Part shown: in pieces, positions 1,671-43,990 of the stretch
How positions within the stretch are numbered: the first letter of the stretch is position 1
Layout of the letters: each line of letters begins with the position of its first letter
Origin: Candidatus Kaiserbacteria bacterium
GTDB lineage: Bacteria > Patescibacteriota > Minisyncoccia > Phycocordibacterales > UBA918
DNA: 64,000 nt
Direction: 5' to 3'
NCBI GenBank assembly: GCA_031430855.1
Contig: JANPCG010000015.1
Coordinates: 641 to 64,640, forward strand
Notes under the pieces: model-generated
The model's database searches: none
What the model was told of the DNA's origin: nothing
Seen by the model: only the letters and a program-made list of their open reading frames with translations
Program-made: the position numbers and the translations under genes

Positions 1671-1683
1671 GTCGGTTTTACCG

Positions 1684-2421: not shown

Positions 2422-2436
2422 AACACCCTCAGTATA

Positions 2437-4236: not shown

Positions 4237-4242
4237 GTTGTT

Positions 4243-4872: not shown

Positions 4873-4875
4873 AGA

Positions 4876-5307: not shown

Positions 5308-5356
5308 GCACGAGGCAGTGTGACGAGAGCACTATCCCAAAATGTATTTCAGTTTA

Positions 5357-6037: not shown

Positions 6038-8327
6038 ATTTCTTTTTTCCTTCTTCGCTTCTGAAGTACGCTAATACACCTGGCTGAATTCCCCACCGAG
6101 CTGCATTAAATTCAAACACCTGACGAAGTTGAAATCGCTGCGCTTGATCAAGCGTCCCTTCTTTTGCGATTTCTTCAAGTATACCAGAGGATATTTTTGG
6201 ATATGCGGAAGAGTATGAAGCGTCGAGGAAAACCTCTTTCGGTAGTTGGATAAATTCCTTAGGCTTTTTGGCAAGCTCTGTAAGTATTGCGTCCGCACCA
6301 CCTCCAGGACTCTGAATAAGATCCAATATACGAGATTTCTTGTTTTGTTTAATTGAGTCATTAAGTTCAGGGGTGGTTTTCTTAGAATTCTTTGTCCAGT
6401 CATCCAACTGAGTAGCTGATAGTAAATGGCTGTTGGTGGATACCCATTCAACCCCAAGTGTGTCGAGCTCGTCTCGTGTGAGCTTTGAGGTTTTGCTTGG
6501 TGAAGGGGTTGCAATGCCTCCAATTTTATTACCAACGGCAGTTTTTCTTGCGCCAGCAATACCACCCTTTTCACTGGAAGAGATCTTTTCGCTGTCCATT
6601 AGTTTTGAGGTTTGATCAGTAGTAAAGGAAGAAGCGTATTTTGCTCGTGTTTTAGAATCAAGATCTTCGATATCACTTTTTGAAAGACCTGTAATGTATT
6701 GTTTGGCTTTAGCCTCTTCTCCCTCCAGTGATACGAGTTTACTTCTATCGTCTGCTGACATACCAGCGTATGTTGCTGGATTAGCGGCAAGAGAACGGAG
6801 ACGTTCCAATTCAGGTCGATTTTTATCGGTATCTTTGACTGCAGCCCGGCCTTTCTTGGTGTCCTTAATTCCCTGCATTCTTGAACGGTTTTTTGTTACG
6901 TCAGCCTTTTCTGATTCGATTTCACTACGTGTTTTAGCTAGACCGGTTCCGCCGGCGCCGTACTCGTAACCAGACTTAAGTCCGTTACGTAAAGATCGAG
7001 TTCCCGGCAAATTTGACATGCCAGTTCGGTCCATTATGTTCAGACCAAGCTTTGATGCTCTTCCGCCTGTGTTTCTGTAGAGAACACCTTGGGTATTTTT
7101 ACGCAACGTATTTCCCATCGAAATTGCCGTTGAGGCACCAACTGCTCCCATACTACGCGCAACAGACAGTGACATAACCAAGAACACCATTGCCATAATA
7201 AAGAACGGCAAAACAGCCAGCGCACTCTGACTGGTCGCCGGGTCGGGAGAAAACATCGCGGCGTAACTTTGTGCCCCTGGGCGAGTACTGTAGGCGTAAA
7301 GGACGCGGAACGAAAGGTACAACATCAGTAAATAGGCAGGAGCAAAAAATGCTTGTTTAAGAAATCCAGTCCAAAACTTACTCGAAGTCCCGGAGAAGGC
7401 AGGAAACACCCACCCGAGGAACATAACCGGTGAAAACACCATATAGACATTAAGCGCAATAAATCGAATGATAAGTAAGATACCCCCTGCAGCAAACACA
7501 AAAGTGGCAGTTGCAAGGAATATCATTAAACCGAATATATACGCTAATGCCCCACCATTCCCAAATGCCGTTATCTGGCCTTGAGAAATCTCGAGGGTTG
7601 TCTCAAGGTTAAGAATGTTTATGAAGGCATTTGCAATGTCACCGCGCGCTTCACCAAAACCGTCAGCGATTACCGATGATGCCACGTGGGAGAGATCAAT
7701 GATAAATTTGGTAATAAAAAGACTAAAATTTACCAAGAGGGCCGCTCCGATTAAAGACACGAGCATGCTGCGTGCGCGTGAGTCACTCGAATCAAGAATC
7801 ATCTTAAAGCCTATGTATACTAACCCAAAGATAAAGGTGAGGTTAAAGAGGTCTCGAATGATTCGCCACACTTCTTCTACTGCAAAGCCAATCCCGTCAT
7901 TGTAGTAGCGGTCACCAAACCCGAGAAGGAAAGAATTAATACCAAATGTCATCAAATATCCAGCAAAGGAAAAGAGTGTTGTAAACACTGAGTAGACGAA
8001 TTCATAGAGCCATTGGTAGAGTGGGTTGGCAAACTGAACGGTTGGTACTTCAGTGGTTTGGGTCTGAGTTTCTTCGGGTGCAGCCGCGCCCCCGCCAGTA
8101 GTGCCGCCGCCATAGGTGCCAGTTACGGGGTCATATGTTGGAGCAAAGCCGGGTCGGTTAAATTGATCAGAATAGAAACCGCGATCAATAGGGTCTGTCA
8201 CTACCGGCGGTCTCGGACCAAGGTCTCCGGCGTAAGCAGTTTGACTTATAAGAAGAAATCCAAACAGTAACAAACTACCGATCAGTATCGCTATAAAGCT
8301 CTGCATTTTTGTTACCTGTCTAATCAT
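6027..8327 (-). CDS. Large polytopic membrane protein, putative VirB6/TrbL-like T4SS channel component with a hydrophilic Lys-rich C-terminal domain
   Basis: 766 aa. Signal/TM at the N-terminus, a Gly-rich linker, at least six predicted TM helices, then about 350 aa of hydrophilic tail. Position in the cluster fits. Confidence 0.4.
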   Translation of the reverse strand: MIRQVTKMQSFIAILIGSLLLFGFLLISQTAYAGDLGPRPPVVTDPIDRGFYSDQFNRPGFAPTYDPVTGTYGGGTTGGGAAAPEETQTQTTEVPTVQFANPLYQWLYEFVYSVFTTLFSFAGYLMTFGINSFLLGFGDRYYNDGIGFAVEEVWRIIRDLFNLTFIFGLVYIGFKMILDSSDSRARSMLVSLIGAALLVNFSLFITKFIIDLSHVASSVIADGFGEARGDIANAFINILNLETTLEISQGQITAFGNGGALAYIFGLMIFLATATFVFAAGGILLIIRFIALNVYMVFSPVMFLGWVFPAFSGTSSKFWTGFLKQAFFAPAYLLMLYLSFRVLYAYSTRPGAQSYAAMFSPDPATSQSALAVLPFFIMAMVFLVMSLSVARSMGAVGASTAISMGNTLRKNTQGVLYRNTGGRASKLGLNIMDRTGMSNLPGTRSLRNGLKSGYEYGAGGTGLAKTRSEIESEKADVTKNRSRMQGIKDTKKGRAAVKDTDKNRPELERLRSLAANPATYAGMSADDRSKLVSLEGEEAKAKQYITGLSKSDIEDLDSKTRAKYASSFTTDQTSKLMDSEKISSSEKGGIAGARKTAVGNKIGGIATPSPSKTSKLTRDELDTLGVEWVSTNSHLLSATQLDDWTKNSKKTTPELNDSIKQNKKSRILDLIQSPGGGADAILTELAKKPKEFIQLPKEVFLDASYSSAYPKISSGILEEIAKEGTLDQAQRFQLRQVFEFNAARWGIQPGVLAYFRSEEGKKKYGP

Positions 8328-8387
8328 TTCGTTTTTACTCCAATCTCTCCGTTATTCTAACACCCCTCCCTTAATTCCGTGCAGAAA

Positions 8388-9863
8388 TTATGGGAGTATA
8401 CGACGCCACTCATTCACTCGCTGGGAAATTTCACTCGCTGAGGTAAGGGTGCCATTGGCAGTGAGGTCAATAAAATCAACTGCGACGTCCTGCCTAATCG
8501 CTCCAACCGGCTGCTGAGTCGTGGCGGTAGAACTTGCCGTGTCGTGACGGGTAATCATGGTGGTGAGGGTGGTTACATTGGTTTGTACGCCAACTCGAAT
8601 CGTAGTGGCGCTACTAATGAGGCTCACCAATTGGGAACTTGGTGGTGTAGTGTCAGAAGAGACGGTAGAGGTGCCGGCCGGCAGACTGGCTCCGGTAGGG
8701 CTCAAACCACGAGACCTCAGTTCAGCAGTAGCTCGAGCAATGTAGTTGTCAATAATGGCCAAGAAATTTTGTTCATTTTGGAGAGCGGTATTTATCTGAG
8801 TCCTAATCGTTGAGGTGTCAATAAAAATCCTATCGTTTTCTTCGCGAGCAGCATCTATATATGAACTGGTACCATTACTACCAAAACTATTATCCGCATA
8901 CGCTGAGTTTCCACCCAAGCCTAAGAGTCCGTTAATACCACGCATCGCCTGGAGCGTGAGTTGACTAATCAGGGCACCAATAATTTCATTAATTTCGTCT
9001 GCTTCAATTAAGGTTCGCTGTCCGGTTGAGAGCTGGAATGTTAAGGCTTCACTAATTACCTTGCCCGGTGTGGTTATTTTACAATTAGCTCCTTTTCCAG
9101 CCGGTTTACCTTCAATGGCTTCACAAACACGTTTTGAGAGGAAACCATCACTCCAGCTCGCTATTTCAATTTCTTGACCAGCTTCATTTTTGAGTCGAAT
9201 GTCGAGTTTTGCTTCAGCTTCTAGGTAAGCTCCATACGGGGTGTTTTGGGGGTTGCTACTCATTTCAAGCCATTCTTCCCAACCCCCATTACTGACGCCG
9301 CTCAAGAAACCCTCGATATTGTTTTGAATATCGGAAAGTCGACAAGCCGGTGCTGTTGGTCCAGACGGCATGCCGCTCCGCGCCTGCTGGTAGTTAATTG
9401 CCAAAGCGGCCTGGACATCAAGTCGGAATGGTGAACAAATAAATTCACCAATTCCTCCCAGACTACGAATATATTCACCGGCGGCAGTATCAAGTGCATC
9501 AAGTAAAAAACCATTTAAGTCTGTAATAAACGCTGGGCTACCTTGAAATCCAGAGTTAATCCAGTTAACGAGACTCTGGGTCATTTGACTCATAATTTGT
9601 TTGGCAATGGCCCAACCAATTCCATCAAGGAGCTCTTTATTTAAAAGACCGGCCGTAGACACCGCTGTGATACCGGTATTAGCAGCAGTGAGCGTGTTTT
9701 GTACCGCTGAAACAGCTAATTCTGCCTGTTGGGTAATCTGCATTCCTAATGTAGCGTTTCCTCCAGCGGCACGGGTATAAGGAGTTGTTGCAGTAGTGAT
9801 AGTAACTACGAGCACTACCGCAAGGAAGCTCGTACCAAATTTTTGTAGTAAAGAACGTGTCAT
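8388..9863 (-). CDS. Secreted hypothetical protein (signal peptide FLAVVLVVTITTATT), T4SS-cluster associated
   Basis: ORF track 8388..9971. The likely true ATG at 9863 gives MTRSLLQKFGTSFLAVVL... Confidence 0.5.
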   Translation of the reverse strand: MTRSLLQKFGTSFLAVVLVVTITTATTPYTRAAGGNATLGMQITQQAELAVSAVQNTLTAANTGITAVSTAGLLNKELLDGIGWAIAKQIMSQMTQSLVNWINSGFQGSPAFITDLNGFLLDALDTAAGEYIRSLGGIGEFICSPFRLDVQAALAINYQQARSGMPSGPTAPACRLSDIQNNIEGFLSGVSNGGWEEWLEMSSNPQNTPYGAYLEAEAKLDIRLKNEAGQEIEIASWSDGFLSKRVCEAIEGKPAGKGANCKITTPGKVISEALTFQLSTGQRTLIEADEINEIIGALISQLTLQAMRGINGLLGLGGNSAYADNSFGSNGTSSYIDAAREENDRIFIDTSTIRTQINTALQNEQNFLAIIDNYIARATAELRSRGLSPTGASLPAGTSTVSSDTTPPSSQLVSLISSATTIRVGVQTNVTTLTTMITRHDTASSTATTQQPVGAIRQDVAVDFIDLTANGTLTSASEISQRVNEWRRILP

Positions 9864-9873
9864 AATAATTATG

Positions 9874-10791
9874 TTATTGCGGACTAAAGGCAACAAATAC
9901 ATATACCGGATCGTTTTGATTAAACACTTTGACATGTGGAATGAGTACGTTGTATATATTTTGAAGAGCAAAGGCGAGGCCGGTGGCGTCGTCCTGATAA
10001 CGCTTCACGCGCAACAAGGAAACCACCGGATCTTTAAAGGCAAGTTTTAATCCATCTAAACTTGCAAACATAGCTTGATATACATTAATGAGATCGAGGT
10101 GCTGCTTCTCAAAACCGCGTGGTACGGGGGTAGCAAGTGCGTCATCGCGCAGGGCTTTGTACATGGCAATTAGTGGTTCAAGTTTCTCTAATTCAGCGGG
10201 GTTTTCGGTCTTCATCGCGCGATCAATAATCACCAGCTCTCCTTCTGAATTAGGAACATTCCGCGCTGAGAGGCTACTGCCGAGACTGTTCCCCCAGGCG
10301 CGAATTGCTTCCGGGGTGTTTTCTACAACAGTAATCATACTTCCATTATAGATAGTGTCACGAATGACGGTATTTCTGAGGATGTCGGTCGTTTCGGCAA
10401 CGACTTGTTCCGGAGTAGGTCCCACATTCCCCCGCCCTTTTGCCCTTAGGACGGATTGAAAGAGTTGAATACTCATTTGATCAGTAACCGTATTTGGCAC
10501 TTCGTAGACTGATGCGCTTTGGGGCTCAATATCAATTTGGAGTGGTGTTTGGGGGGCAAATTCTTCTTGCCAATCCTCAATTCCGTTTTGATCGCTGTCA
10601 ACCACTTCAATGAATGAACGCTCAGGTGCTGTGGCGGCAACGGTATACACCGATGGGTCTGCTGTTGGTGGAGTGAGGGTCGTCGGTCGAGTTAGGCTAC
10701 TGATAGTATATGAACCACCAACGAGCGCCAAACCAACCACAAACGCGCCGAGAATTTTTGGGTTAGGTTGCATACCCAATAAGTATAACAA
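9874..10791 (-). CDS. Membrane-anchored hypothetical protein
   Basis: 305 aa. N-terminal TM helix (ILGAFVVGLALVGG) then a hydrophilic domain. Confidence 0.5.
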   Translation of the reverse strand: MLYLLGMQPNPKILGAFVVGLALVGGSYTISSLTRPTTLTPPTADPSVYTVAATAPERSFIEVVDSDQNGIEDWQEEFAPQTPLQIDIEPQSASVYEVPNTVTDQMSIQLFQSVLRAKGRGNVGPTPEQVVAETTDILRNTVIRDTIYNGSMITVVENTPEAIRAWGNSLGSSLSARNVPNSEGELVIIDRAMKTENPAELEKLEPLIAMYKALRDDALATPVPRGFEKQHLDLINVYQAMFASLDGLKLAFKDPVVSLLRVKRYQDDATGLAFALQNIYNVLIPHVKVFNQNDPVYVFVAFSPQ

Positions 10792-28699: not shown

Positions 28700-28899
28700 T
28701 AAGTGAACCAAGGAGGTATTTTGAGAAGTAAATTTAATTAAAAAAGTAAGGTTTGGGATTTTCAATAAGCACACGATTCATAAAAATGTCAACTCACACG
28801 AAAGGGTGGCAAATATATGGCTATAAATATGGATAATTTTACCTTATAAAAATATTCAAAGCAGCTGTCTTTTATAAAAGACATTCGTAAATGAGTTAT

Positions 28900-29350
28900 T
28901 CACAGTTATCCACTATGATGTCCTTTACACACATCTCTATAGGACATACTATAGTTGTAGGCCCAGAGAGGGCGCGCAGGTAGCTCCCAGAGTTCCGCAC
29001 TAAAGTTTCTTTAGTTCAGAACCCTGGGGGAAACCCCGTAAAGAGTACATTCAAAATTAAAAGTTTTTACCTCCAAAAACTCTAACGTTCACAGAACAAA
29101 GAACCCACTAGAAGAAAGGATCGAAGTGAAATCTTCTTACAAGATTAACCAAGGTGCAGAGACGAACCAGACCTTCGTAGATATTTGCAAGCAAAATCGA
29201 TTTCAACAAAAAACATATGAGCAATAAACTAGGGACCGCTCCACCATAACGGAGCCCCACATTGAGACTACGTCTCACCAAAGAGTAACGCTCAGACGTA
29301 AAAGCCCGTAGGGATTAGCAGCCAATCATATCGATTAGCTCCTGATTCCT
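28900..29350 (+). ncRNA. Candidate structured ncRNA in a 0.9 kb gene-free gap (possibly a reduced RNase P RNA). It ends with a long imperfect hairpin plus a U-tract.
   Basis: GC-rich segment GGGCGCGCAGGTAGCTCCCAGAG...GGGGGAAACCCCGTAAAGAGTACA...ACAGAAC with weak similarity to RNase P conserved regions. Hairpin AAAAGCCCGTAGGG...CCTACGGGCTTTT followed by TTTTCTATTTTC. Confidence 0.2.
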
Positions 29351-29609
29351 ACGGGCTTTTCTATTTTCTTGCCCATATTTTCTTTGGATAGCTGTGTAAA
29401 CTGATAGTTTTATTCCTGCGTCGTATATCTAATCGCCTTAGTCATAAAACTAGCAGTTTCCTTCGCTCTTCTTTGAAAATCTGACTGAGACCAATCCAGA
29501 AATAGTTTCAAGCTACAAAAATCCTACGCAAAAATCTAGCCAATTCCCTGTTTTTGACTAAATGTAATGCTAAAATGACTCAGATCAACCTTTTGTGTCA
29601 CCCGTTCCC

Positions 29610-31082
29610 CTACCCAACCCTGTGTTCCTTGGCGATTTCTTTAAGCGCGGCAGCCTCTTCCTCCGCCAATTTATCCTTCCCTGCTTCAGCCATTGATAAT
29701 AACGCCGCTTCCGGCATGACCAAAAGCTCTAGAACCCTTGATTCTAAATAGTTTTCAATATTTTTCCCCGGGTCTACCAACACCTCTTCCAACAGTGCAT
29801 GCAGTATATATCCGAGCCTTTTCCCCGGCTTTTCCCCAGAAATAGTCATAATCCGGTCGCCGTTTATTTTGAGAAGTTTAACCGAAATTGGGTCACGTAA
29901 AGCCTCGTCAACCATGGCTTTGTACTTTCGAAAGCGAAACGGCTGTTCTTTCGGTCGGCCGGTACCAATTCGGTCGCACACCCGCAAATTAAGCAGGTTT
30001 TCAATGTTGTCTTCACCAATCCGTACGATTGTTCGTCGGACTGCACTGAGAGTTATTTCATCTGGATCGGAGAAAAACATATGCCAACGCACCAGTTTCT
30101 CCACTTCGAGGGTGGTTTCGCGGGGCAGCTTGAGTCGCTCGAGGATAATTTTGGTCATTCGTGCCCCGACGACCTCGTGGCCAAAGAAGGTGTAGTGTTT
30201 ATTTTTACCTCCCGTTCGTCTCGTGGCTGGTTTACCAATGTCATGGAGTAAGGCTGCTATACGAAGATTAGTTGAATGTCCTTTATCAGCTGCTGCTTGT
30301 AGGGTGCGCAAGAGATGTTCGTATACATCGTACGCATGGATGCCGCCTTGCTCACAGCCAATTGAAGCTTTAATTTCAGGTAAAATATAATCAATCATCC
30401 CTAATTTCTCAAGCATCACCATGCCTGCCATTGGGGTGTCTGAGTTTATCAATTTTATAAATTCAGCCGCAATTCGCTCAATGGCAATATGCGACAAGAG
30501 TGCATGATTAGCCATAATTCCAGCCATGGTATCGGCATCAATCATAAAATCGAGTTCGGCCGCCAGTCGAACCGCTCTCATCATCCGTAACGCGTCTTCG
30601 CTAAAGCGGGCACCAGCTTCCCCAACCGTTTTTAACCGTTTATCTCGAATGTCTGCAATTCCATCATATAAGTCAACGGTTTCGTGAGTAGCCAAGCGGT
30701 ATGCAATGGCGTTAATAGTGAAGTCCCGGCGCGCTAAATCTTCTGCCAGACTGACCCCAAAAGTAACAGAATCAGGTCGTCGTTTATCGGTATATTCCCC
30801 TTCCGCGCGGTACGGGGTTACTTCAATTATTCGCAGTCGTTCATCTTCGGTTTCGCTATTCTTTACTCCGACGGTACCGTAGTCATTATTACAAAAACTA
30901 TCTGGGAAAAGAGCTTGAATCTGGTCCGGATGAGCATTGGTCGTAAAGTCCCAGTCTTTCGGGGTGCGTCCTACGACCAGGTCGCGAACGCAGCCCCCCA
31001 CTAAATACGCCTCATAGCCAGCGCTCTCAAGTGTTTGTGCTACTTGTTTTACTTCGAGGGGAACTGAAGTAAGGGATATCAT
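29610..31082 (-). CDS. cca: CCA-adding tRNA nucleotidyltransferase / poly(A) polymerase family with a C-terminal HD domain
   Basis: GGCVRDLVVGRTPKDWDFTT head-domain motif; HD motif LLHDIGKP. Confidence 0.85.
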   Translation of the reverse strand: MISLTSVPLEVKQVAQTLESAGYEAYLVGGCVRDLVVGRTPKDWDFTTNAHPDQIQALFPDSFCNNDYGTVGVKNSETEDERLRIIEVTPYRAEGEYTDKRRPDSVTFGVSLAEDLARRDFTINAIAYRLATHETVDLYDGIADIRDKRLKTVGEAGARFSEDALRMMRAVRLAAELDFMIDADTMAGIMANHALLSHIAIERIAAEFIKLINSDTPMAGMVMLEKLGMIDYILPEIKASIGCEQGGIHAYDVYEHLLRTLQAAADKGHSTNLRIAALLHDIGKPATRRTGGKNKHYTFFGHEVVGARMTKIILERLKLPRETTLEVEKLVRWHMFFSDPDEITLSAVRRTIVRIGEDNIENLLNLRVCDRIGTGRPKEQPFRFRKYKAMVDEALRDPISVKLLKINGDRIMTISGEKPGKRLGYILHALLEEVLVDPGKNIENYLESRVLELLVMPEAALLSMAEAGKDKLAEEEAAALKEIAKEHRVG

Positions 31083-31170
31083 AATCTCGTCATTGTACCA
31101 GAATTACATTGCTTTTTCGCCTCAGTGCGCGTATTATTTCAACCACTACATTGGCTTCGCTTAATGTACT

Positions 31171-31242
31171 GCACCCGTGGTGAAGTGGATATCATTACTG
31201 ACTTCGGATCAGTCGTCGGGGGTTCGAGTCCCTCCGGGTGCA
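31171..31242 (+). tRNA. tRNA-Arg(TCG), no encoded CCA
   Basis: Manual cloverleaf: acceptor GCACCCG/CGGGTGC; anticodon stem ACTGA/TCAGT with loop CTTCGGA; T-arm GGGGG-TTCGAGT-CCCTC. Confidence 0.85.
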
Positions 31243-31291
31243 CAAATTGGCCGACCCTAATGCGCAAGCATTGGGGTCGTTGCCATTTGTC

Positions 31292-31412
31292 GCGACCGGA
31301 GGGACTCGAAAAGACGCAGCGGGGCCCCTCTGGGCCGCGGCGTCTGGGGTCGAGCGAATGAGGTAATTTATGAACGAAGTGAAATAAATTACCCATGAGA
31401 GTGACCGAGTCC
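31292..31412 (+). repeat. Structured repeat element Y (family 1). It begins with an inverted copy of the tRNA-Arg T-arm/acceptor, then a GC-clamp hairpin, then a hairpin with loop GAACGAAGTGAA, and ends ...CATGAGAGTGACCGAGTCC.
   Basis: Paralogous to 31547..31617 and, in reverse orientation, to 43409..43533. The stems differ but remain complementary. Confidence 0.6.
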
Positions 31413-31451
31413 TTTTGAAAAGCGTTACGCGACTCGAAACCCGATTGAGTT

Positions 31452-31524
31452 GGATTAGGAGCGAAGCGAACTAATCCAACCAATTGGGATACTGAACCTG
31501 TAAGGTTCGAGTCCCCTGTCCCAG
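31452..31524 (+). repeat. Structured repeat element A (family 2): hairpin with loop GAGCGAAGCGAA, then CCAATTGGGATACTGAACCTGTAAGGTTCGAGTCCCCT
   Basis: Paralogous to 32859..32929. The 5-bp stem GAACC/GGTTC co-varies with GAACT/AGTTT in the other copy. Confidence 0.55.
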
Positions 31525-31546
31525 GAGAGGTGTGTTTAATGCTACT

Positions 31547-31617
31547 TCTGGGGTCGAGCGAATGAGCTTTATTGCAAACGAAGTGTAGCAATAAAGCCAT
31601 GAGAGAGACCGAGTCCC
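31547..31617 (+). repeat. Structured repeat element (family 1, partial copy lacking the GC clamp): TCTGGGGTCGAGCGAATGAG-hairpin(loop AAACGAAGTGTA)-CCATGAGAGAGACCGAGTCC
   Basis: Flanks identical to element Y. The stem sequence is entirely different but complementary, which is compensatory change. Confidence 0.6.
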
Positions 31618-31772
31618 TCCAAAAGCATTTCTACACTCAAAAGGTTGCCAGCTATTTTAAAAATTACGATTCAATTCATCTTAATTTCCACCACCTTCCT
31701 TCTTTTAGTTGACTCCCCCTTTATTTTTGCTACTCTTTTGCCATATCTTGTTCCAATCAAGAGGTTTACGTA

Positions 31773-31927
31773 TGGCAAGTGCTAATGGCAGCGGTAGGCT
31801 CACTCCCGCACAGCTCGCCCGTGAAGACAAAAAGCGCTTGCAGAAGGCAAAACGTCTCGCTCGCAAAAAGGCAGTGGCTGAATCTGCAAAGGTTGTCCCC
31901 CGCTCGGGCGCGCGCACCCTCTATTGA
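31773..31927 (+). CDS. Small basic protein (51 aa), possibly bS21-like; good RBS (AAGAGG)
   Basis: MASANGSGRLTPAQLAREDKKRLQKAKRLARKKAVAESAKVVPRSGARTLY. Lys/Arg-rich with a C-terminal ...LY, as in S21-type proteins. Confidence 0.4.
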
Positions 31928-32028
31928 TGTCGCGAAATGAACATCTAACCGCCCGGATAATATCCGGGCGTTCTGTTTATTACCATAAAATGAACACTGG
32001 TCTTAGTATATAATATACACACTTTGTT

Positions 32029-32709
32029 ATGCCAAAAGTTGCTCACTATAAAGAGGAAGCCTATCAACAAGCCCTCTCCTTTCGACGTCGCGGTTTTACC
32101 TATCGTGAAATAGCGAAGATTTGCAACGTTTCTGTGAGTACATTAAGTAATTGGTTAGCGCACGAACCGTTCTCTACTGAGGTTGCTAAAGATAATATAC
32201 GCAAAGCAACGAATGAAAACACCAAACGTCTCGTGCTAATAAACAAGGCTCGTATCTCAGAGCGTAAACTTCAATACAGTGAAGTGGTCCGTCAGGCTGT
32301 TGTTGAGTATCAGAATTATCATACCAATCCCCTGTTTATTGCGGGGATAATGGTTTATGCGAGTCAGGGAGATGTACATAATGAGAAAGTGATTCGTCTT
32401 TCAAACAGTCGAACTGACCAGCATCGTATCTTTATACGCTTCCTAACAACGTATTTAGGGGTTGAGAAGGCAAAAATTAGGATATGGCTGCTGCTTTATC
32501 CAGATCACGATGAAATTGCGTGTATGAAGCATTGGTGCAAGAAAACAGGCATATCAGTCGCCCAGTTTTATAAAAACCAAGTAATTACAAGTCGTAGCCA
32601 CAAACCAACATTGCATTTTGGGGTCGGTAATACTATAATCGGCAGTACTCTTTTGAAGAAGAAGCTTAAGAAGTGGATGGAGCTAATGTCAAAAGAGCTT
32701 GAGAAATAA
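32029..32709 (+). CDS. HTH-domain protein of unknown function (N-terminal resolvase- or transposase-like HTH; no recognisable catalytic domain)
   Basis: GFTYREIAKICNVSVSTLSNWL helix-turn-helix. 226 aa. Lies between two tRNA genes and is surrounded by repeat elements. Confidence 0.5.
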   Translation: MPKVAHYKEEAYQQALSFRRRGFTYREIAKICNVSVSTLSNWLAHEPFSTEVAKDNIRKATNENTKRLVLINKARISERKLQYSEVVRQAVVEYQNYHTNPLFIAGIMVYASQGDVHNEKVIRLSNSRTDQHRIFIRFLTTYLGVEKAKIRIWLLLYPDHDEIACMKHWCKKTGISVAQFYKNQVITSRSHKPTLHFGVGNTIIGSTLLKKKLKKWMELMSKELEK

Positions 32710-32714
32710 AAGCT

Positions 32715-32785
32715 GCGGCCATGGTTAAGTGGTATAATGAGTCCTTGCCAAGGATTAGTCGGGGTTTCGATTACCCCTGGCCGCA
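32715..32785 (+). tRNA. tRNA-Gly(GCC), no encoded CCA
   Basis: Acceptor GCGGCCA/TGGCCGC; anticodon stem AGTCC/GGATT with loop TTGCCAA; T-arm GGGGT-TTCGATT-ACCCC. Confidence 0.85.
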
Positions 32786-32792
32786 CAAATCT

Positions 32793-32825
32793 AAAAAGAC
32801 CCGAGCTTCTGCTCGGGTCTTTTTA
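32793..32825 (+). terminator. Rho-independent terminator immediately after tRNA-Gly
   Basis: AAAAAGACCCGAGC-ttct-GCTCGGGTCTTTTT. Confidence 0.75.
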
Positions 32826-32858
32826 GATTTTGCTTGGGTAATCGAAAGACCAATAGAG

Positions 32859-32929
32859 CCAGATTTGAAGCGAAGCGCACCAATCTGGCCAATTGGGTTA
32901 CTGAACTCGTAGAGTTTCGACTACCCCTT
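32859..32929 (+). repeat. Structured repeat element B (family 2). It is preceded at 32835-32848 by an inverted copy of the tRNA-Gly T-loop (GGGTAATCGAAA).
   Basis: CCAGATT-tgaagcgaagcgcac-CAATCTGG, then CCAATTGGGTTACTGAACTCGTAGAGTTTCGACTACCCCT. Paralog of element A. Confidence 0.55.
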
Positions 32930-33402
32930 AAGTTAGTAGCAGGTTGCGTGGCAATCGAAAGAACTTGTCTGCTATTTTTTAAGTAAAAACGAGAAAGTTG
33001 CGACAAGGTGTGCTGCTCCAGTAAGTAGTCGATTACCTATGTCTGGTTTGCAACTAAAAGTAAGTAAATGAACTACTGACCGTCAGTTTCAATCACTACA
33101 AACATTACCCTACGTTCTCTGTCCTCTAAAATTACGAAATATAAAAGCACTCGCACCTGTGCACAACTTGTCTAACATGTGTATAAAGGACAGTCGTAAA
33201 AGACACATATCTTTGAATAGTACGGCCCGATATATAGCTTTCGGGATTAATTCTGTGTATAATTATAAAATTTTGTGTACCACGTGAAACGTGTTACGTA
33301 CACCTGTAATTATAGCCTTATATAAAAAAGTTACACATGAAACCAACGTATTCTAAAAAAAATTATCAAAAAGGCTGAATCTGGCTGCTATACTAGTTCC
33401 AT

Positions 33403-33816
33403 ATGGAACAAAAAGAGAAGTTAAAACTTAAAACTAAAGAAACTGGGAATAAAGGAGAGTTAATTTGTGCCCGGTACCTTAAAAGTGAGGGATTTACTCT
33501 AATTGCAATGAATTATCAAAAAAAGTGGGGTGAAATTGATGTTATTGTGCAAAAAGCCAATAAAATTCACTTTGTTGAAGTAAAAACAGTTTCATATGAA
33601 ACGAAGGACGATCTTGATTATGCAGTTGCACATGGAACGTGGCGGCCAGAAGATAATGTTCATCAAAATAAATTAATTAAACTATCTCGAGTAATTCAGA
33701 CCTGGATTATCGAACACAAGTGGTCTGGCGACTTTCAAATTGACGTTGCGGCGATAAGAATTGTACCACGTGAAACGTATGCACGTATTAATATCATTGA
33801 AAATATTATTCTGTAA
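33403..33816 (+). CDS. yraN: YraN-family (UPF0102) endonuclease-like protein
   Basis: GELICARYLKSEGFTLIAMNYQKKWGEIDVI core. The start codon sits inside a GTTCCATATGGAAC palindrome. Confidence 0.7.
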   Translation: MEQKEKLKLKTKETGNKGELICARYLKSEGFTLIAMNYQKKWGEIDVIVQKANKIHFVEVKTVSYETKDDLDYAVAHGTWRPEDNVHQNKLIKLSRVIQTWIIEHKWSGDFQIDVAAIRIVPRETYARINIIENIIL

Positions 33817-33877
33817 TGATTTCACGTGAAATGGTTTCATATGGAACTTTAAATTTTATTACTTATACAATCCAAAC

Positions 33878-34286: not shown

Positions 34287-34320
34287 GAAAATCACTAGTT
34301 TCATATGAAACTAGTGATTT
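34287..34320. terminator. Perfect 34-nt palindrome AAAATCACTAGTTTCATATGAAACTAGTGATTTT. Bidirectional terminator between the pseudogene and tRNA-Pro; carries the GTTTCATATGAAAC motif.
   Basis: Seen directly. U-tracts on both sides. Confidence 0.6.
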
Positions 34321-34328
34321 TCTTATTG

Positions 34329-34399
34329 TCGGGGAGCAGGGAATCGAACCCTGACCATCCGGTCCCAAACCGGATACACTACCACTATGCTACACCCCG
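34329..34399 (-). tRNA. tRNA-Pro(TGG), no encoded CCA; C1-G72 as in bacterial tRNA-Pro; one T-T mismatch in the acceptor stem
   Basis: T-arm CAGGG-TTCGATT-CCCTG; anticodon stem TCCGG/CCGGA with loop TTTGGGA. Confidence 0.8.
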
Positions 34400-40033: not shown

Positions 40034-40149
40034 GGTATGTAGTATAGCATTATGTGCGTGGGCGTCAGAAAAGCGTTCCCTAAGGACGTTCCTGTATGTT
40101 GGGTATAGGGGTTTAGGTCGACGTTCGAACTTTTTATATACAATGCGAC

Positions 40150-41628
40150 TTACAAAAGTGAAATTGCTTCATCGATTGATCCCCATACACGAATAAGGGT
40201 CTTTTTTGCTACCACCAGAATAATCAAATCATGTATTGCCTCAAGGAACGATCTGTCATGTGTTACGCAAAGCACTGTTCCGTCAAACTCTCCTAGTAAC
40301 TCTACGAGAAATTGCCAGTTAACCGGATCGAGGTTGTTGGTTGGTTCATCGAGAATAATAAAGTCAGGTTTTGCATAAAACATGAGCGCGAGGCGTAGTC
40401 GTTGCTTTTGACCACCCGATAAGCGTTCTACCACCATATCCATTTCTGCTATAGTAAACAAGAGTCGCGTTAAAATAGATCGGGCTAAATCTTTCGTAAT
40501 ACCTATTATTGCAAACAATTCAAAGGCGGTGTGTTGTGCTGGCAATTCACTATGCTGACTAAATACAACGGTTTTAATGTTCACGCCGGTCTGTACTTCC
40601 CCCGCCTGTGGCTTAATGGCACCAGTAATGAGTCCGAGCAGGGTCGTCTTTCCCGTGCCGTTTCGGCCGAGAATACAGAGCTTCTGCCCAAAGCGAATAT
40701 CGAGATTAACTTTTGAAAATAATGTTATCGCACTGTATCCACCACTAACTTCGTTAAGTTTCACGATGAGCTTACCCTGTTTCTGTTCAATCTCCGCCGC
40801 TCGTATTTCAGGTCTGCGTATATCAGGTCGTACCATGGTCTCTACAAGCTCTTTTTCTACCGCCAGCTGACGTTTCTTCATTTGGTAGGTTTTTGCTTTG
40901 CTGTCACTAAAAGTGGTCTGTCGTTTTAGCTCAGTGACGAGGTTGGCCATTTTCGTCAATTTTCGTTTCGCTATCCGATAGTCGTGCTGCATCAGGTTTT
41001 GTTGTTTCAAGCGCTCTTCCACTAATTCTTCATAAGTTAGATTTGTCGTCACTGTTACCGCTTCGTGCTCTACCAAAACAATTTTCTTGGTGAGGGCATT
41101 AATTAGTGTATGGTCGTGCGACACCATAATGACGGCGCCCCAATAGTCCCGTAACAATTCCGTCAAAATATGGCACACTTTTATATCAAGATGGTTTTCT
41201 GGCTCATCGATACACAGAAACATCGGACCACGTGACAATGTTGCAGCGATTTCAAGTACCCGCAACTGTCCACCGGAAAGTTCCGATAGCACTCCGTTTT
41301 CCAGCAACTGCGGACTTATGATGCCAAACCTTTTTATAATTGCATGAATGCTAGGTGTACTCTTTTGCTGTGCTAAATACTCGTTGACCGAGAGTGACCG
41401 ATCTCCACCAAACTCCTGTGCTATGTAAGAAATTGATTGATCAACGCGCACTTCACCTTCATCAGCCGTCTCGATACCGGCCATAATCTTCAACAAGGTA
41501 CTTTTCCCAGCTCCGTTATTGCCAATAATAGCAACTCGATCACCTTGTGAGACAGCAAGTGAGACGCCAGTAAAAAGCGTTTTTTGTGCTAGGGATTTAC
41601 TGACATTTTTTAAAATAATTGTTTTCAT
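40150..41628 (-). CDS. ABC-F family ATPase (two tandem ABC domains, no TMD)
   Basis: GNNGAGKST and GRNGTGKTT Walker A motifs; two LSGGQ signatures. Confidence 0.8.
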   Translation of the reverse strand: MKTIILKNVSKSLAQKTLFTGVSLAVSQGDRVAIIGNNGAGKSTLLKIMAGIETADEGEVRVDQSISYIAQEFGGDRSLSVNEYLAQQKSTPSIHAIIKRFGIISPQLLENGVLSELSGGQLRVLEIAATLSRGPMFLCIDEPENHLDIKVCHILTELLRDYWGAVIMVSHDHTLINALTKKIVLVEHEAVTVTTNLTYEELVEERLKQQNLMQHDYRIAKRKLTKMANLVTELKRQTTFSDSKAKTYQMKKRQLAVEKELVETMVRPDIRRPEIRAAEIEQKQGKLIVKLNEVSGGYSAITLFSKVNLDIRFGQKLCILGRNGTGKTTLLGLITGAIKPQAGEVQTGVNIKTVVFSQHSELPAQHTAFELFAIIGITKDLARSILTRLLFTIAEMDMVVERLSGGQKQRLRLALMFYAKPDFIILDEPTNNLDPVNWQFLVELLGEFDGTVLCVTHDRSFLEAIHDLIILVVAKKTLIRVWGSIDEAISLL

Positions 41629-43378: not shown

Positions 43379-43408
43379 ATGTAAATTATACCAAATTATA
43401 CTAAATGC

Positions 43409-43533
43409 TGGTGAGAAGAATCGGTCACGAGTTACTGACTATAATTGTTCACTTCGTTCCAATTCTAGTAAGTACTCTCGACCCCAACGCGCCGGCCCAG
43501 AGGGGTCCCGGCTTGCGTCCTTCGATTCTTCAC
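43409..43533 (-). repeat. Family-1 structured repeat element X, in reverse orientation relative to the tRNA-Arg copy. Includes partial copies of the tRNA-Trp 3' end.
   Basis: Its reverse complement aligns to 31292..31412. Shared blocks are GACGCA-GC-GGG-CCCCTCTGGGCCG, TGGGGTCGAG and the GAACGAAGTGAA loop. GGTGAGAAGAATCG is shared with tRNA-Trp. Confidence 0.6.
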
Positions 43534-43616
43534 GAAATATGCTCCCAGCATATTTCTTCACTCCGCACAGCAGCAACAGAAAAACCGTCCCTAAGGACGG
43601 CTTTTCATGTTGGCTG

Positions 43617-43687
43617 TGCGGGTGAGAAGAATCGAACTCCCGACTACTGCTTGGAAGGCAGTCGTTTTACCACTAAACCACACCCGC
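43617..43687 (-). tRNA. tRNA-Trp(CCA), no encoded CCA
   Basis: Acceptor GCGGGTG/CACCCGC; anticodon stem CTGCC/GGCAG with loop TTCCAAG; T-arm GGGAG-TTCGATT-CTTCT. Confidence 0.85.
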
Positions 43688-43774
43688 AAGGTTTGATTCA
43701 TCAGTTGCAAGATTCTAGCATAATCAGCTAATTATTCAATGGAATAGATCGGGTTCTGATTTTGAAACTAAAAC

Positions 43775-43990
43775 ACCCCCGGCTAGAGGGTTTAAACAGT
43801 CGGGGTGAGAAAATGTCACTACATTTCCGCAAGACCTTTTATAAATTCATGATTTACAAAAGGTGTACCGCTTCTGTAAGAAGACTGTTTAAAACAAAAA
43901 CGCCCGGCTGATGGGTTTACACAGTCTAGTAGGCTGTGTAAAAAGGGAGTTGTCCAAAAAAGCAAAACACCCCGGCTGAGGGGTGCTCTA
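43775..43990. repeat. Three dispersed copies of an approximately 24-nt motif AAAAC-CCCGGCT(A/G)(A/G)(G/T)GGGTTTA(A/C)ACAGTC between hup and tRNA-Trp
   Basis: Copies at about 43775, 43901 and 43969. Each has a short CCC...GGG hairpin. Confidence 0.6.

Follow-up and report, generated by a model that had tools for sequence, protein, structure and literature searches.

Repeat units behind the tRNA genes

The window, a 64,000-nt stretch of a Candidatus Kaiserbacteria contig, contains four tRNA genes, three of which are followed on their 3' side by a shared layout (Table 1). The order of the elements is X1 (the tRNA sequence from the T-loop to the discriminator), the trailer with a palindromic terminator, X' (an antisense copy, frequently interrupted by a small hairpin, H0), a core of type F1 or F2, and X2 (a direct copy). 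At tRNA-Arg, the inverted copy GCGACCGGAGGGACTCGAA (31292-31310) forms part of a 29-nt inverted repeat that includes the trailer (31223-31251 versus 31282-31310, 79% complementary). Compared with shuffled sequences, the X1-terminator-X' single strands have fold z-scores of -10.9 (tRNA-Arg), -12.9 (tRNA-Gly(GCC)) and -13.0 (tRNA-Gly(TCC)).

The initial annotation had reported inverted copies of the tRNA end downstream of three tRNA genes, had separated that of tRNA-Arg from its gene by a 12-bp GCAA hairpin, and had regarded each copy as the start of a family-1 or family-2 repeat; all three observations were reproduced. The inverted copy that it placed after the terminator hairpin of tRNA-Gly(GCC) at 32835-32848 was recovered at 32836-32847. 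The gene that it called tRNA-Trp does have the direct and inverted partial copies described, but is a tRNA-Gly(TCC) on the minus strand.

Table 1. tRNA genes and associated repeat features in the window
Feature	Position	Strand	Description
tRNA-Arg(TCG)	31171..31243	+	Hosts first array; ARAGORN; Rfam tRNA, 60.5 bits
X1 of tRNA-Arg, TTCGAGTCCCTCCGGGTGCA	31223..31242	+	T-loop, T-stem 3' strand, acceptor 3' strand, discriminator; att-like
Hairpin, 12 bp, GCAA loop	31252..31279	+	Between X1 and X'; terminator position, weak T-run
X' of tRNA-Arg	31282..31310	+	Antisense of trailer and tRNA-Arg 3' part, as far as T54
Unit 1, hairpin H1	31313..31344	+	Variable, GC-rich; 83% complementary to 43482-43510
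Unit 1, F1-type core hairpin H2	31346..31406	+	GGGGTCGAG ... loop GAACGAAGTGA ... GTGACC
Unit 1, X2, CGAGTCCTTTTGAAAAGCG	31406..31424	+	Decayed direct copy
Unit 2, GCGACTCGAAA	31429..31439	+	Short antisense T-loop copy
Unit 2, F2-type core	31440..31505	+	Long hairpin P2 (loop GAGCGAAGCGAA), junction ATACTGAA, small hairpin P3
Unit 2, GGTTCGAGTCCCC	31504..31516	+	Direct T-arm-like copy
Unit 3, second F1-type H2 core	31550..31610	+	79% identity with unit 1
Unit 3, direct copy, CGAGTCCCTCCAAAAGCA	31610..31627	+	14/18 identical to tRNA-Arg 3' end
tRNA-Gly(GCC)	32715..32786	+	Hosts second array; ARAGORN, Rfam tRNA
Palindromic (bidirectional) terminator	32787..32830	+	Directly 3' of tRNA-Gly(GCC); perfect, 20 bp, inverted repeat 100%
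X' of tRNA-Gly(GCC), GGGTAATCGAAA	32836..32847	+	Antisense of T-loop and T-stem
F2-type core of tRNA-Gly(GCC) array	32850..32914	+	P2, junction, P3; orthologue is unit 1 of L038 array
Direct copy, TTTCGACTACCCC	32915..32927	+	Decayed; orthologous L038 copy is a perfect 24-mer
Second unit, tRNA-Gly(GCC) array	32951..33037	+	Decayed; X' GCAATCGAAAG, hairpin P2, direct copy TCGATTACC
tRNA-Pro(TGG)	34328..34399	-	Empty site, native palindromic terminator only; L038 orthologue has a 215-nt cassette
X2 of tRNA-Gly(TCC)	43406..43423	-	Direct copy of tRNA 3' end, 17/18 matches
F1 core hairpin H2, tRNA-Gly(TCC) cassette	43423..43485	-	
Hairpin H1, tRNA-Gly(TCC) cassette	43487..43519	-	
X' of tRNA-Gly(TCC)	43521..43571	-	X'a 43554-43571, H0 43537-43553, X'b 43521-43533; antisense of trailer and tRNA 3' part
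Intrinsic terminator	43580..43605	-	Behind tRNA-Gly(TCC)
tRNA-Gly(TCC)	43616..43687	-	ARAGORN; Rfam tRNA

Cognate specificity of the copies

The copies are specific to the gene that they follow. A downstream inverted match with a score of at least 10 was found for 54% of 131 CPR tRNAs, as compared with 2% in their own upstream regions and 2% downstream of non-cognate tRNAs; direct copies were found for 47% of the 131, versus 1-2% in the controls (Mann-Whitney test, cognate versus controls, p ~1e-23 for inverted and ~1e-21 for direct copies). All 67 distinct F1 cores located directly behind a tRNA or tmRNA gene had the inverted match, X' being complementary to the left flank, and in 24 units a direct copy followed GTGAC. 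L038, L016_Ser and L070 have perfect direct repeats, 19-24 nt long.

The distances covered by X' inside the tRNA follow a bimodal distribution, one group of 31 units reaching 3-7 nt and another of 29 units reaching 21-23 nt (as far as T54/55). In class B, about half of the units, X2 is missing and X' extends only about 5 nt into the tRNA, suggesting that one mechanism may not cover all units. Opposite U64, X' has an A in place of the G50 of the tRNA 5' strand, and it runs on into the T-loop and the trailer; it is therefore a complement of the tRNA 3' strand and not a copy of the 5' strands. It continues into the genomic trailer, and TGG is present only where the gene encodes CCA.

Chance, or a generic T-loop similarity between tRNA-like sequences, is a negligible candidate for the origin of these matches. 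Short TTCGA matches are indeed common, since GTTCGAATC is common to all tRNAs, and 17 loose T-loop matches were observed where 12.4 were expected. However, the proposal is refuted by the cognate and non-cognate frequencies given above, and the matches are 20-29 nt long, reach the acceptor stem and the trailer, and are accompanied by fold z-scores of -11 to -13.

Fold of the cores

The H2 hairpin covaries and contains a G·U pair that is invariant in 106 of 108 sequences; elsewhere in H2, 28 G·U pairs were counted versus 11 A·C. Covariation was also detected at the base of H1, in P3 and in H0, the loop and junction nucleotides are highly conserved, and H0 is consistently placed at the acceptor/T-stem boundary of X'. 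Since the hairpins covary and the invariant G·U would be A·C on the opposite strand, the comparison of sequences indicates that the core folds as a single strand, and specifically as the sense strand. In the X1-terminator-X' palindromes, 832 pairs are Watson-Crick, 4 are G·T, none is A·C and 4 are of other kinds, and the centres span only 2-4 nt; being near-perfect, they leave little for a comparison of G·T with A·C between strands.

A strong terminator, usually a perfect palindrome, lies upstream of every unit, and a search for internal promoters in the units revealed no promoter-like site. The initial annotation had also considered a regulatory structure pairing with the tRNA 3' end. Two observations disfavour this: a terminator separates the tRNA from the antisense copy, and no promoter-like site was found.

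Rfam 15 scans of the window and 26 related loci at gathering thresholds matched nothing but tRNA, tmRNA and group I introns; when 31000-33200 was scanned by E-value, the sole matches were sub-threshold ones to Leu/Thr leaders, driven by the terminator. No covariance model of the known families, including T-box, ribozymes, tRNA-like RNAs and omega/bridge RNAs, matched the cassettes, and by-eye resemblances to hammerhead, HDV-like and K-turn (C/D) motifs failed closer inspection.

Distribution, polymorphism and arrays

In a census based on an exact 20-mer of the F1 core, at least 120 metagenome contigs were found to carry it. The core lies behind 17 tRNA types or tmRNA in 78 of 132 cases, also following intron-containing tRNAs, and is found as well behind the 3' ends of ftsZ and rpsI and behind plain 3' UTRs, where the accompanying inverted copies match the respective local sequence. 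In the CPR loci examined, the cassette architecture follows the majority of tRNAs, always in the orientation of the tRNA, and many metagenome contigs terminate at the element. The core is near-identical in distant CPR lineages (4 differences in 63 nt between L031 and L016), its conservation across these lineages being about as strong as that of tRNA. Perfect X copies amid fully diverged terminators, the conserved loops and junctions, and the near-identity of the core would also fit a selected RNA function.

Orthologous loci differ in the presence of the units: 1) The tRNA-Pro site, empty in the window, is occupied in the relative L038 by a 215-nt cassette, with the orthologous native terminator located after X2. 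2) The tRNA-Arg gene is followed by three units in the window and by none in L034 and L038. 3) L016, L017 and L033 have three distinct cores within identical flanks. 4) The tRNA-Gly array of L038 consists of at least three units, each closed by a perfect 24-nt X. Units are also visibly decayed among close relatives. The data contained no excised or circular unit, and no case of an empty and a filled site within one population. The att segment at the tmRNA gene of L155 is used in addition by a 3-kb toxin-antitoxin island.

A viral origin was rejected: IMG/VR viral contigs do not contain the F1 20-mer, and a looser pattern gave two chance matches there, in high-GC coding sequence. Comparison of tRNA alleles gave no clear signal of tRNA horizontal transfer. 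A limited full-text literature search on CPR tRNA-linked repeats and mobile elements found no description of the cassettes, which apparently represent a widespread but undescribed family of gene-less units behind the tRNA genes of the ultra-small CPR/Patescibacteria.

A replacement gene end at ftsZ

In L080, ftsZ ends with VPAFLRRSKLK*. Beyond the core, these 11 residues are encoded a second time, with 10 nucleotide differences that are all synonymous. In 200,000 trials, 10 random changes never preserved this peptide (0/200,000). Retention of the peptide despite 10 synonymous differences indicates that the cassette brings a foreign replacement gene end, and copies that differ to this extent do not represent a fresh duplication of the target.

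These data bear on two alternatives. The units could be passive by-products of replication errors, in which DNA synthesis switches template or snaps back at the hairpins of the terminator and T-arm, as in tandem-inversion-duplication, with the cores being unrelated hairpin repeats. Such an origin would produce the direct-inverted-direct order of X1, X' and X2 with hairpins at both turn-arounds, as well as palindromes that are essentially perfect with centres of 2-4 nt, although perfect palindromes are equally expected of bidirectional terminators. We regard it as very improbable, since it leaves unexplained the conserved cores with a fixed junction (GTGAC followed by C-X2) at 17 or more tRNA types and in at least 120 contigs, the interruption of X' by H0 at a consistent position, and an ftsZ copy that is foreign rather than a local duplicate.

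The units could also be functional, structured non-coding RNAs linked to tRNAs, whether as 3'-trailer elements or as tRNA-like RNAs. In the latter version, X'a, H0, X'b, the core and X2 would fold as a one-armed mimic of the acceptor/T-stem. Read-through or unrecognised promoters would give rise to such RNAs, which would be freed by tRNA-processing enzymes and multiplied by local duplication, and could act in tRNA maturation, quality control or decoying. The covariation in H2, H1 base, P3 and H0, the conserved loops and junctions, the invariant G·U, the constant orientation with the tRNA, the position of H0 in X', the persistence of several perfect X copies within one array and the tRNA-like conservation of the core all speak for this proposal. 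We nevertheless consider it unlikely, because every unit is preceded by a terminator and has no promoter-like site, units are polymorphic and decay in close relatives, the core also occurs behind ftsZ, rpsI and 3' UTRs with an X' matching those sequences, local duplication does not explain the foreign synonymous ftsZ end, and no Rfam family was matched.

Search for a mobilising enzyme

Neither the units nor the 50 of the 54 window ORFs scanned with Pfam yielded an integrase, transposase, HUH nuclease or reverse transcriptase. Specifically, no Y1 HUH transposase (TnpA/RAYT) was present among these 50 ORFs, no tyrosine recombinase, intI or attI near any array examined, no reverse transcriptase in the window (50/54 ORFs) or adjoining units, and no recombinase in the tmRNA island of L155. 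No cassette-borne recombinase emerged from a search for autonomous versions, i.e. direct X copies more than 450 nt apart or the F1 5' module apart from H2; its results were the 3-kb toxin-antitoxin island of L155 and, in L106, an IS30-like gene. As no recombinase-type gene was found, the mobilising enzyme is hypothetical. A helix-turn-helix (HTH) protein encoded at 32029-32709 is conserved beside tRNA-Gly; it had no match in NCBIfam and no sequence match in PDB, and the fold matches of its AlphaFold model (pLDDT 80) were limited to the HTH.

These searches also weigh on the possibility of a retroelement, in which X' would serve as a segment like a retroviral primer-binding site (PBS) or a group II intron EBS, and mobility would involve an RNA intermediate and a reverse transcriptase. 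In class A, X' spans exactly the PBS region, from the acceptor 3' strand to the T-loop; the fold is specific to the sense strand; and X1 in the left flank with X' inside the unit has the topology of IBS/EBS pairing. However, X' complements the genomic trailer and not the CCA-tailed mature tRNA, a reverse transcriptase was found neither in the window nor beside the units, the units are far below the size of group I/II ribozymes and match none in Rfam, and class B units and protein-gene targets do not agree with tRNA priming. A retroelement is therefore a poor candidate, only marginally better than the by-product.

Comparison with known systems

Tycheposons of Prochlorococcus are tyrosine-integrase islands with a T-loop crossover in tRNA or tmRNA genes (bioRxiv 10.1101/2020.12.28.424599). 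As in these and other integrase islands, the inserts in the Kaiserbacteria window and related loci lie between direct repeats derived from the 3' part of the tRNA, and the element provides the functional gene end. Shared with tycheposons are also the successive tRNA-proximal insertions yielding arrays with partial tRNAs between them, the frequent degenerate remnants and the use of tmRNA as a target. The cassettes differ in being 150-250 nt long, without an integrase or any gene, and in adding an antisense att copy and a covarying, strand-specific hairpin core; moreover, one family of cassette cores uses many targets, whereas integrase clades are each tied to a tRNA of their own. Thus, of the features that define integrase islands, flanking direct repeats with an intact tRNA and insertion polymorphism are present, but a self-encoded integrase is not.

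Integron gene cassettes recombine at folded single-stranded attC sites (PMC2727003). The likeness covers the arrays in one orientation, the imperfect palindrome arms (R''/R' corresponding to X'/X2) around a variable structured centre, stems that covary with little sequence conservation, unpaired features that set the strand, and proximal entry of new units. The RYYYAAC/GTTRRRY boxes are absent from the cassettes, the arms of which are tRNA-derived (e.g. GTTCGAG, with C at position 4), 11-24 nt long and locus-specific; unlike integrons, the cassettes have no IntI gene or attI, their cargo is a terminator instead of an ORF, and their platform is a tRNA gene.

IS200/IS605 elements and their gene-less derivatives (PATEs, REP/REPIN with RAYT) are small, hairpin-rich and strand-specific, have no conserved terminal inverted repeats and are found in intergenic space behind genes. 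In IS608, the target flank is recognised by base pairing with a guide beside a subterminal hairpin; its right end is similar to the target. Known guides of this type are 4-5 nt long and fixed for each element. The cassettes are likewise small, hairpin-rich, strand-specific and intergenic, but their complementary segment is 11-29 nt long and different at every locus, a gene end is replaced and a terminator is brought in. CTX phage and IMEX integrate as folded single-stranded DNA, attP(+) consisting of two inverted dif-like sites, with the target always dif and the enzyme XerCD. The similarity lies in spaced inverted target copies that fold as a stem mimicking the chromosomal site, in strand specificity and in an enzyme not encoded by the element (for the cassettes, as proposed here), whereas the targets of the cassettes are many different gene ends. 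The E. coli tyrT distal repeats, 178-bp tandem units each closing with the last 19 nt of tRNA-Tyr, resemble the cassettes in being tandem units behind a tRNA gene with a copy of its 3' end; they are not known to have an antisense copy or a core common to other loci or genomes, and are restricted to a single locus.

Other types of elements were rejected. The SINE/MITE-like, tRNA-derived element put forward in the initial annotation does not fit. For a MITE, the arms X' and X2 vary with the locus, matching the local gene instead of forming conserved terminal inverted repeats, and there is no short target-site duplication of fixed length, the duplicated segment ranging from 13 to more than 30 nt. 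For a tRNA-derived SINE or a tRNA-primed retroelement, only the last ~20 nt of the tRNA are copied, X' complements the 3' strand of the tRNA and runs into the trailer and not into TGG, cores of this kind also stand behind ftsZ, rpsI and plain 3' UTRs, and no reverse transcriptase was found. TIGR-Tas arrays are composed of tandem ~36-nt units with dual 8-12-nt spacers beside a Nop-domain Tas gene (PMC12045711). The cassette units are 150-250 nt long and lie behind tRNAs, and no Nop-domain protein was found in the window (50/54 ORFs).

Proposed mechanism

Among the three explanations first offered, a tRNA-targeting integrative or mobile element that duplicates or inverts its att site fits best. 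It is favoured by the insertion polymorphism at orthologous loci, the att-like direct repeats from the T-loop to the tRNA end, the arrays in which differing cassettes are bounded by identical repeats and the foreign ftsZ end; the two findings that the initial annotation named as contrary to it, a lack of polymorphism and a similarity confined to TTCGA, were both at odds with the data. On these sequence comparisons, we consider it slightly more probable than not that the units are non-autonomous, site-specific integrative mini-cassettes of CPR/Patescibacteria, about 150-250 nt long and without an ORF.

Such a cassette sits at the 3' end of a conserved gene, mostly tRNA or tmRNA, and would supply its own version of the gene sequence beyond the junction together with a new palindromic terminator. 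Next comes X', the antisense of the junction sequence, often split by H0, then the strand-specifically folded core, either F1 (H1 and H2) or F2/F3 (P2 and P3); about half of the cassettes close with X2, a direct copy of the target segment. Beyond X2 lie what would be the displaced end of the native gene and its terminator. The T-arm/acceptor copies would thus be att-type duplicates (X1 and X2) plus a complement (X'), and the putative mobile unit would consist of one X, the trailer, the terminator, X' and the core. By comparison with the folded attC, attP(+) of CTX phage and the guide/cleavage-site pairing of IS200/IS605, the X':X stem of the folded strand may mimic the target duplex, or X' may pair with a single-stranded target, and the stem may direct a hypothetical trans-encoded or host enzyme. 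Each fresh insertion would enter at the gene-proximal X and displace older units away from the gene, to decay there.

A bolder version, to which we attach only a small probability, is a self-targeting element in which X', split by H0, would be a guide pairing with the single-stranded 3' end of tRNA, tmRNA, ftsZ or rpsI exposed in replication or transcription. Through the core, a small enzyme, acting in trans or supplied by the host, would be recruited for strand-specific insertion just behind the target, a guided integration independent of CRISPR, TnpB and IS110 bridge RNAs.

Implications for CPR genomes

The genomes of CPR/Patescibacteria are about 1 Mb in size and are thought to be poor in mobile DNA. 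The cassettes, one exact 20-mer of which is carried by at least 120 contigs, appear to be the commonest repeat of this group, and account for assembly breaks and spurious ORF calls behind tRNA genes as well as for differing tRNA 3' flanks in close relatives. Because it would bring a replacement gene end and a terminator, a gene-less element could enter the most conserved sequences of a genome without damage. To carry an antisense copy of its own target is an unusual strategy; if this copy directs insertion, the cassettes, with matches to more than 17 targets, would represent a compact integration system that is retargetable by nature and, if guided integration is the true reading, one that operates in the smallest known bacterial genomes. 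If the cores are instead RNAs, they would constitute a large, unrecognised family of tRNA-linked structured RNAs.

tRNA loci and repeat units

Four tRNA genes were identified in the window with ARAGORN and Rfam, and when the repeat units were compared with the whole window by BLAST, they appeared at only three of these, tRNA-Arg, tRNA-Gly(GCC) and tRNA-Gly(TCC). The last had been misnamed tRNA-Trp in the initial annotation; the direct and inverted copies of its 3' end described there are both present, in the minus-strand order terminator, hairpin-split antisense copy, repeat core and direct copy. The inverted copy reported behind tRNA-Arg was also recovered, with pairing that extends over 9 nt of trailer, and its arms do enclose a 12-bp, GCAA-looped hairpin. 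Behind tRNA-Gly(GCC), a terminator hairpin is followed by an inverted T-loop copy, as had been noted.

All loci share one order of parts: i) X1, the tRNA 3' part from T-loop to discriminator, ii) a short trailer, iii) a palindromic terminator, iv) X', the antisense of trailer and X1, often broken near the acceptor/T-stem boundary by a small hairpin, H0, v) a conserved core and vi) often, but not always, X2, a direct copy of X beginning in the T-loop. Two core families, F1 and F2, were found in the window. X' complements the tRNA 3' strand, and the tRNA 5' strands are not its source; in tRNA-Arg, X' has A opposite U64, whereas the tRNA has G50, and it continues into the T-loop and trailer. Passive triplication by template switching would account for the direct-inverted-direct order but leaves the shared cores with fixed junctions unexplained, and we regard it as highly improbable.

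Features of the window (several positions in a row correspond to several copies or parts)
Feature	Position	Strand	Remarks
tRNA-Arg(TCG)	31171-31243	+	ARAGORN, Rfam
tRNA-Gly(GCC)	32715-32786	+	ARAGORN, Rfam
tRNA-Pro(TGG)	34328-34399	-	ARAGORN, Rfam
tRNA-Gly(TCC)	43616-43687	-	ARAGORN, Rfam
Inverted arms, tRNA-Arg	31223-31251, 31282-31310		29 nt, 79% complementary
Terminator, tRNA-Gly(GCC)	32787-32830		perfect 20-bp palindrome
Inverted T-loop copy, tRNA-Gly(GCC)	32836-32847		GGGTAATCGAAA
Split antisense copy, tRNA-Gly(TCC)	43554-43571, 43521-43533	-	hairpin 43537-43553
Direct copy, tRNA-Gly(TCC) end	43406-43423	-	17/18 match
F1 cores	31313-31406, 31550-31610, 43423-43519		variable hairpin H1, conserved H2 (GGGGTCGAG ... 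loop GAACGAAGTGAA ... GTGACC)
F2 cores	31440-31505, 32850-32914		long hairpin P2 (loop GAGCGAAGCGAA), junction (A/T)TACTGAA, small hairpin P3
Decayed second unit	32951-33037		long P2-like hairpin, related F3 type
Antisense ORF	31139-31600	-	153 aa
Gene-free gap	28700-29609		inverted repeats 29300-29360, 29374-29483
HTH protein	32029-32709		226 aa
Palindrome GTTTCATATGAAAC	33395-33422, 33588-33615, 33834-33861, 34297-34325		
tRNA-end-like stretch	40066-40112	-	47 nt, 72% identical to 43577-43623
ABC-F ATPase gene	40150-41628		
Hairpin AAAACACCCCGGCTGAGGGGT	43766-43984		three copies within 220 nt
Type-IV-secretion-like cluster	672-9971		P-loop ATPase (TraG/VirB4 type) 2437-4236, PrgI-like 4876-5307

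Several other features were observed. The antisense ORF, an annotated gene in a public MAG, spans tRNA-Arg and the repeat array, has no Pfam match and is almost certainly a false gene prediction brought about by the repeats. The gene-free gap (about 900 nt) separates an Exo_endo_phos gene from the CCA-enzyme gene, whose 3' end faces it; since L034-L038, related contigs, keep a gap of similar size, it may hold an RNA or a regulatory region that has escaped annotation. The palindrome found four times around the YraN/NERD gene has the appearance of an operator or terminator motif that has been repeated; it makes up the central part of the tRNA-Pro terminator, in L038 as in the window. The stretch behind the ABC-F ATPase gene, which resembles the final bases of tRNA-Gly(TCC) with its trailer and terminator and is preceded by the T-loop-like GTTCGAACGTCGACC, may have been left behind, at a distance of 3.5 kb from that tRNA, by a module of tRNA end plus terminator. 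The terminator-like hairpins are upstream of tRNA-Gly(TCC) and adjoin the HU gene. The protein with an N-terminal HTH is encoded 5 nt upstream of tRNA-Gly(GCC), a place that it also occupies in L034 and L038; its homologues number 609 (identity of 62% or more among the 120 of 609 listed; those listed with source names are Patescibacteria/Paceibacteria), and its AlphaFold model (pLDDT 80) gave no PDB fold match apart from the HTH. Several large ORFs of the type-IV-secretion-like cluster have no Pfam match.

Distribution and cognate specificity

Searching GTDB species representatives with the F1-core pattern gave 29 loci. In all 12 from Patescibacteria except L012, where no tRNA was called, a same-strand tRNA or tmRNA precedes the core by 110-250 nt; the other 17 (Vibrio, Nocardia and others) lack a tRNA in the vicinity and were taken as chance matches. 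The exact H2 20-mer is present in at least 120 metagenome contigs. Among the 132 cores in the metagenome matches listed, 78 follow a same-strand tRNA or tmRNA at a distance of 98-476 nt, covering 17 amino-acid types, and most of the rest sit at contig edges. About 14 of about 60 complete short contigs terminate less than 100 nt from an F1 core, which is the expected effect of a multi-copy repeat on assemblies. H2 differs at only 4 of 63 positions, 19 of which were fixed by the search pattern itself, between contigs labelled Saccharibacteria (L031) and Parcubacteria (L016). Through its neighbouring CCA-adding enzyme the window was assigned to a MAG (GCA_043735715.1); homologues of this enzyme are named Patescibacteria, Paceibacteria or Nomurabacteria.

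For 131 CPR tRNAs with 300 nt available on each side, an inverted match to the 24 nt at the 3' end (score at least 10) was found downstream of the cognate tRNA in 54%, compared with 2% in its own upstream region and 2% downstream of non-cognate tRNAs (Mann-Whitney p ~1e-23); the values for a direct copy were 47%, 1% and 2% (p ~1e-21). Chance is excluded by these cognate and non-cognate controls. All 67 distinct F1 cores directly behind a tRNA or tmRNA had the inverted match, and the depth of X' into the tRNA was bimodal. In class A (29 units) it is 21-23 nt, up to T54/55, whereas in class B (31 units) it is 3-7 nt, with X' mainly anti-trailer, a CACAAA-like sequence after the core and no X2. 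A direct copy follows GTGAC in 24 units, chiefly of class A. A PBS- or EBS-type retroelement would fit the topology of the units but is very unlikely, given that no reverse transcriptase was seen in the window or next to the units and that X' corresponds to the trailer encoded in the genome and not to a CCA-tailed tRNA.

Insertion polymorphism and arrays

Relatives were found via the CCA enzyme (79-90% identity). The tRNA-Pro site, empty in the window, is occupied in L038 by a 215-nt cassette consisting of a new terminator, X' split by H0 and an F1 core, followed by a perfect 19-nt X2 and then a terminator orthologous to the native one of the window. Conversely, three units lie behind tRNA-Arg in the window, whereas L034 and L038 have none there. 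At tRNA-Gly(GCC), L038 has at least three units, each with its own terminator, H0, core and perfect terminal 24-nt X; the first is orthologous to the first unit of the window, where X2 has decayed. L016, L017 and L033 have the same flanks with three different cores between them. The tmRNA of L155 precedes, in order, an F1 cassette, X2, a 3-kb island with toxin-antitoxin genes and no integrase, and a perfect X3; the same att segment thus also serves larger islands, the cassette being the proximal unit.

Targets other than plain tRNAs

F1 cores without an ARAGORN tRNA upstream fell into four groups of host site: i) tRNAs with group I introns, ii) ftsZ (L065, L080), iii) rpsI (L093, L120) and iv) plain 3' UTRs (L091, L109, L129). 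In all four, X' is complementary to the sequence directly before the terminator. Intron-interrupted tRNAs missed by ARAGORN (L070, L076, L086, L135, L138, L064 and L048; Rfam Intron_gpI matched in L076 and L086) are followed by F1 cassettes with a perfect 20-nt X2.

In L080, ftsZ ends in ...AVPAFLRRSKLK and a stop, and a second copy past the core encodes VPAFLRRSKLK and a stop before a strong terminator. The copies have AGTGCCGGCATTC in common and then differ by 10 nt in 7 codons, all synonymously; the peptide was preserved in 0 of 200,000 random placements of 10 changes. These data indicate that one of the two ftsZ ends diverged in a different lineage while under selection for its coding sequence, and the cassette appears to carry along a replacement gene end. 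The rpsI site of L093 shows a weaker pattern of this kind, with KR and the stop kept through synonymous changes.

Six F1 cassettes (L050, L071 at 389-804, L081, L085, L110 and L145) have an X' and X2 that match the 3' end of a tmRNA and no detectable adjoining tmRNA. Upstream of them is a nucleotide-conserved sequence ending in TCCAC(CA), with no Rfam family match, which may be an island between tmRNA and cassette or an unrecognised RNA. A short ORF at 1295-1474 of L081, within a few hundred nt of the cassette, bears the LAGLIDADG-like motif YIAGIVDGEGT and may be a homing-endonuclease remnant.

Single-strand structure

As single strands, the X1-terminator-X' segments of the three window loci gave fold z-scores of -10.9, -12.9 and -13.0. 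X1-terminator-X' palindromes in general are near perfect (832 Watson-Crick pairs against 4 G·T, 4 other and no A·C; centres of 2-4 nt), consistent with bidirectional terminators and templated generation alike, and do not indicate which strand matters. In H2, 9 pairs show double compensatory changes among 11 sequences and most pairs covary among 108 unique sequences, with an invariant G·U at the base in 106 of the 108 and 28 G·U versus 11 A·C elsewhere. The H1 base covaries (GCG/CGC, GAC/GUC, AGC/GCU, ACC/GGU, GUG/CAC), and the stems of P3 and H0 vary between copies with pairing kept. The covariation and invariant G·U indicate that the functional fold is that of the tRNA-sense strand, as ssDNA or RNA. 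No sigma-70-like promoter was found inside the units. The F2 loop GCGAAGC is a DNA mini-hairpin of marked stability, and the cassette loops are similar to the CS-6 loop in the single-strand origins of rolling-circle plasmids; these points may lead towards an ssDNA intermediate and are not counted as evidence.

A selected RNA function, as a tRNA-like or trailer RNA, would account for the conserved loops, the G·U, the orientation and the perfect X copies. However, it leaves unexplained why terminators lie upstream, why units are polymorphic and decay, why protein genes are targets and why an ftsZ end is foreign, and we consider it unlikely.

Proposed mechanism and relation to known systems

We lean slightly towards small site-specific integrative cassettes as the best fit to the combined data, since i) att-like direct repeats begin in the T-loop, ii) a replacement gene end and terminator are present, iii) orthologous sites are both empty and filled, iv) units form arrays and decay, and v) they are spread over CPR lineages with multi-copy behaviour. 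The simplest mobile unit would hold one X, followed by trailer, terminator, X' and core. In the folded single strand X' would pair with X, giving a rod capped on one side by the core and on the other by the terminator hairpin, and the X':X stem would have the same sequence as the chromosomal target. No enzyme was found in any unit or among the 50 of 54 window ORFs examined, and no excised form was observed. In this model one core family would have to acquire arms for more than 17 targets. Class B units, with short gene overlap and no X2, may work differently. More novel, and doubtful, is the possibility that X' is a built-in guide.

The proposed folded strand resembles the attP(+) site of CTX phage, and its X':X pairing would resemble guide/cleavage-site pairing in IS200/IS605. 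The proposed strand also resembles folded attC sites (PMC2727003); integron cassettes share the array logic and the palindrome with a structured centre but have R boxes and IntI, which the tRNA-linked cassettes lack. Islands targeting tRNAs, such as tycheposons, likewise have partial-tRNA repeats and proximal insertion that pushes older elements outward, but carry an integrase, by which they are defined and which is absent from the cassettes. A MITE was rejected for want of conserved terminal inverted repeats and a fresh target-site duplication; SINE and TIGR-array identities were also rejected, and the cassettes belong to no Rfam family. A limited full-text literature search found no published description of them.
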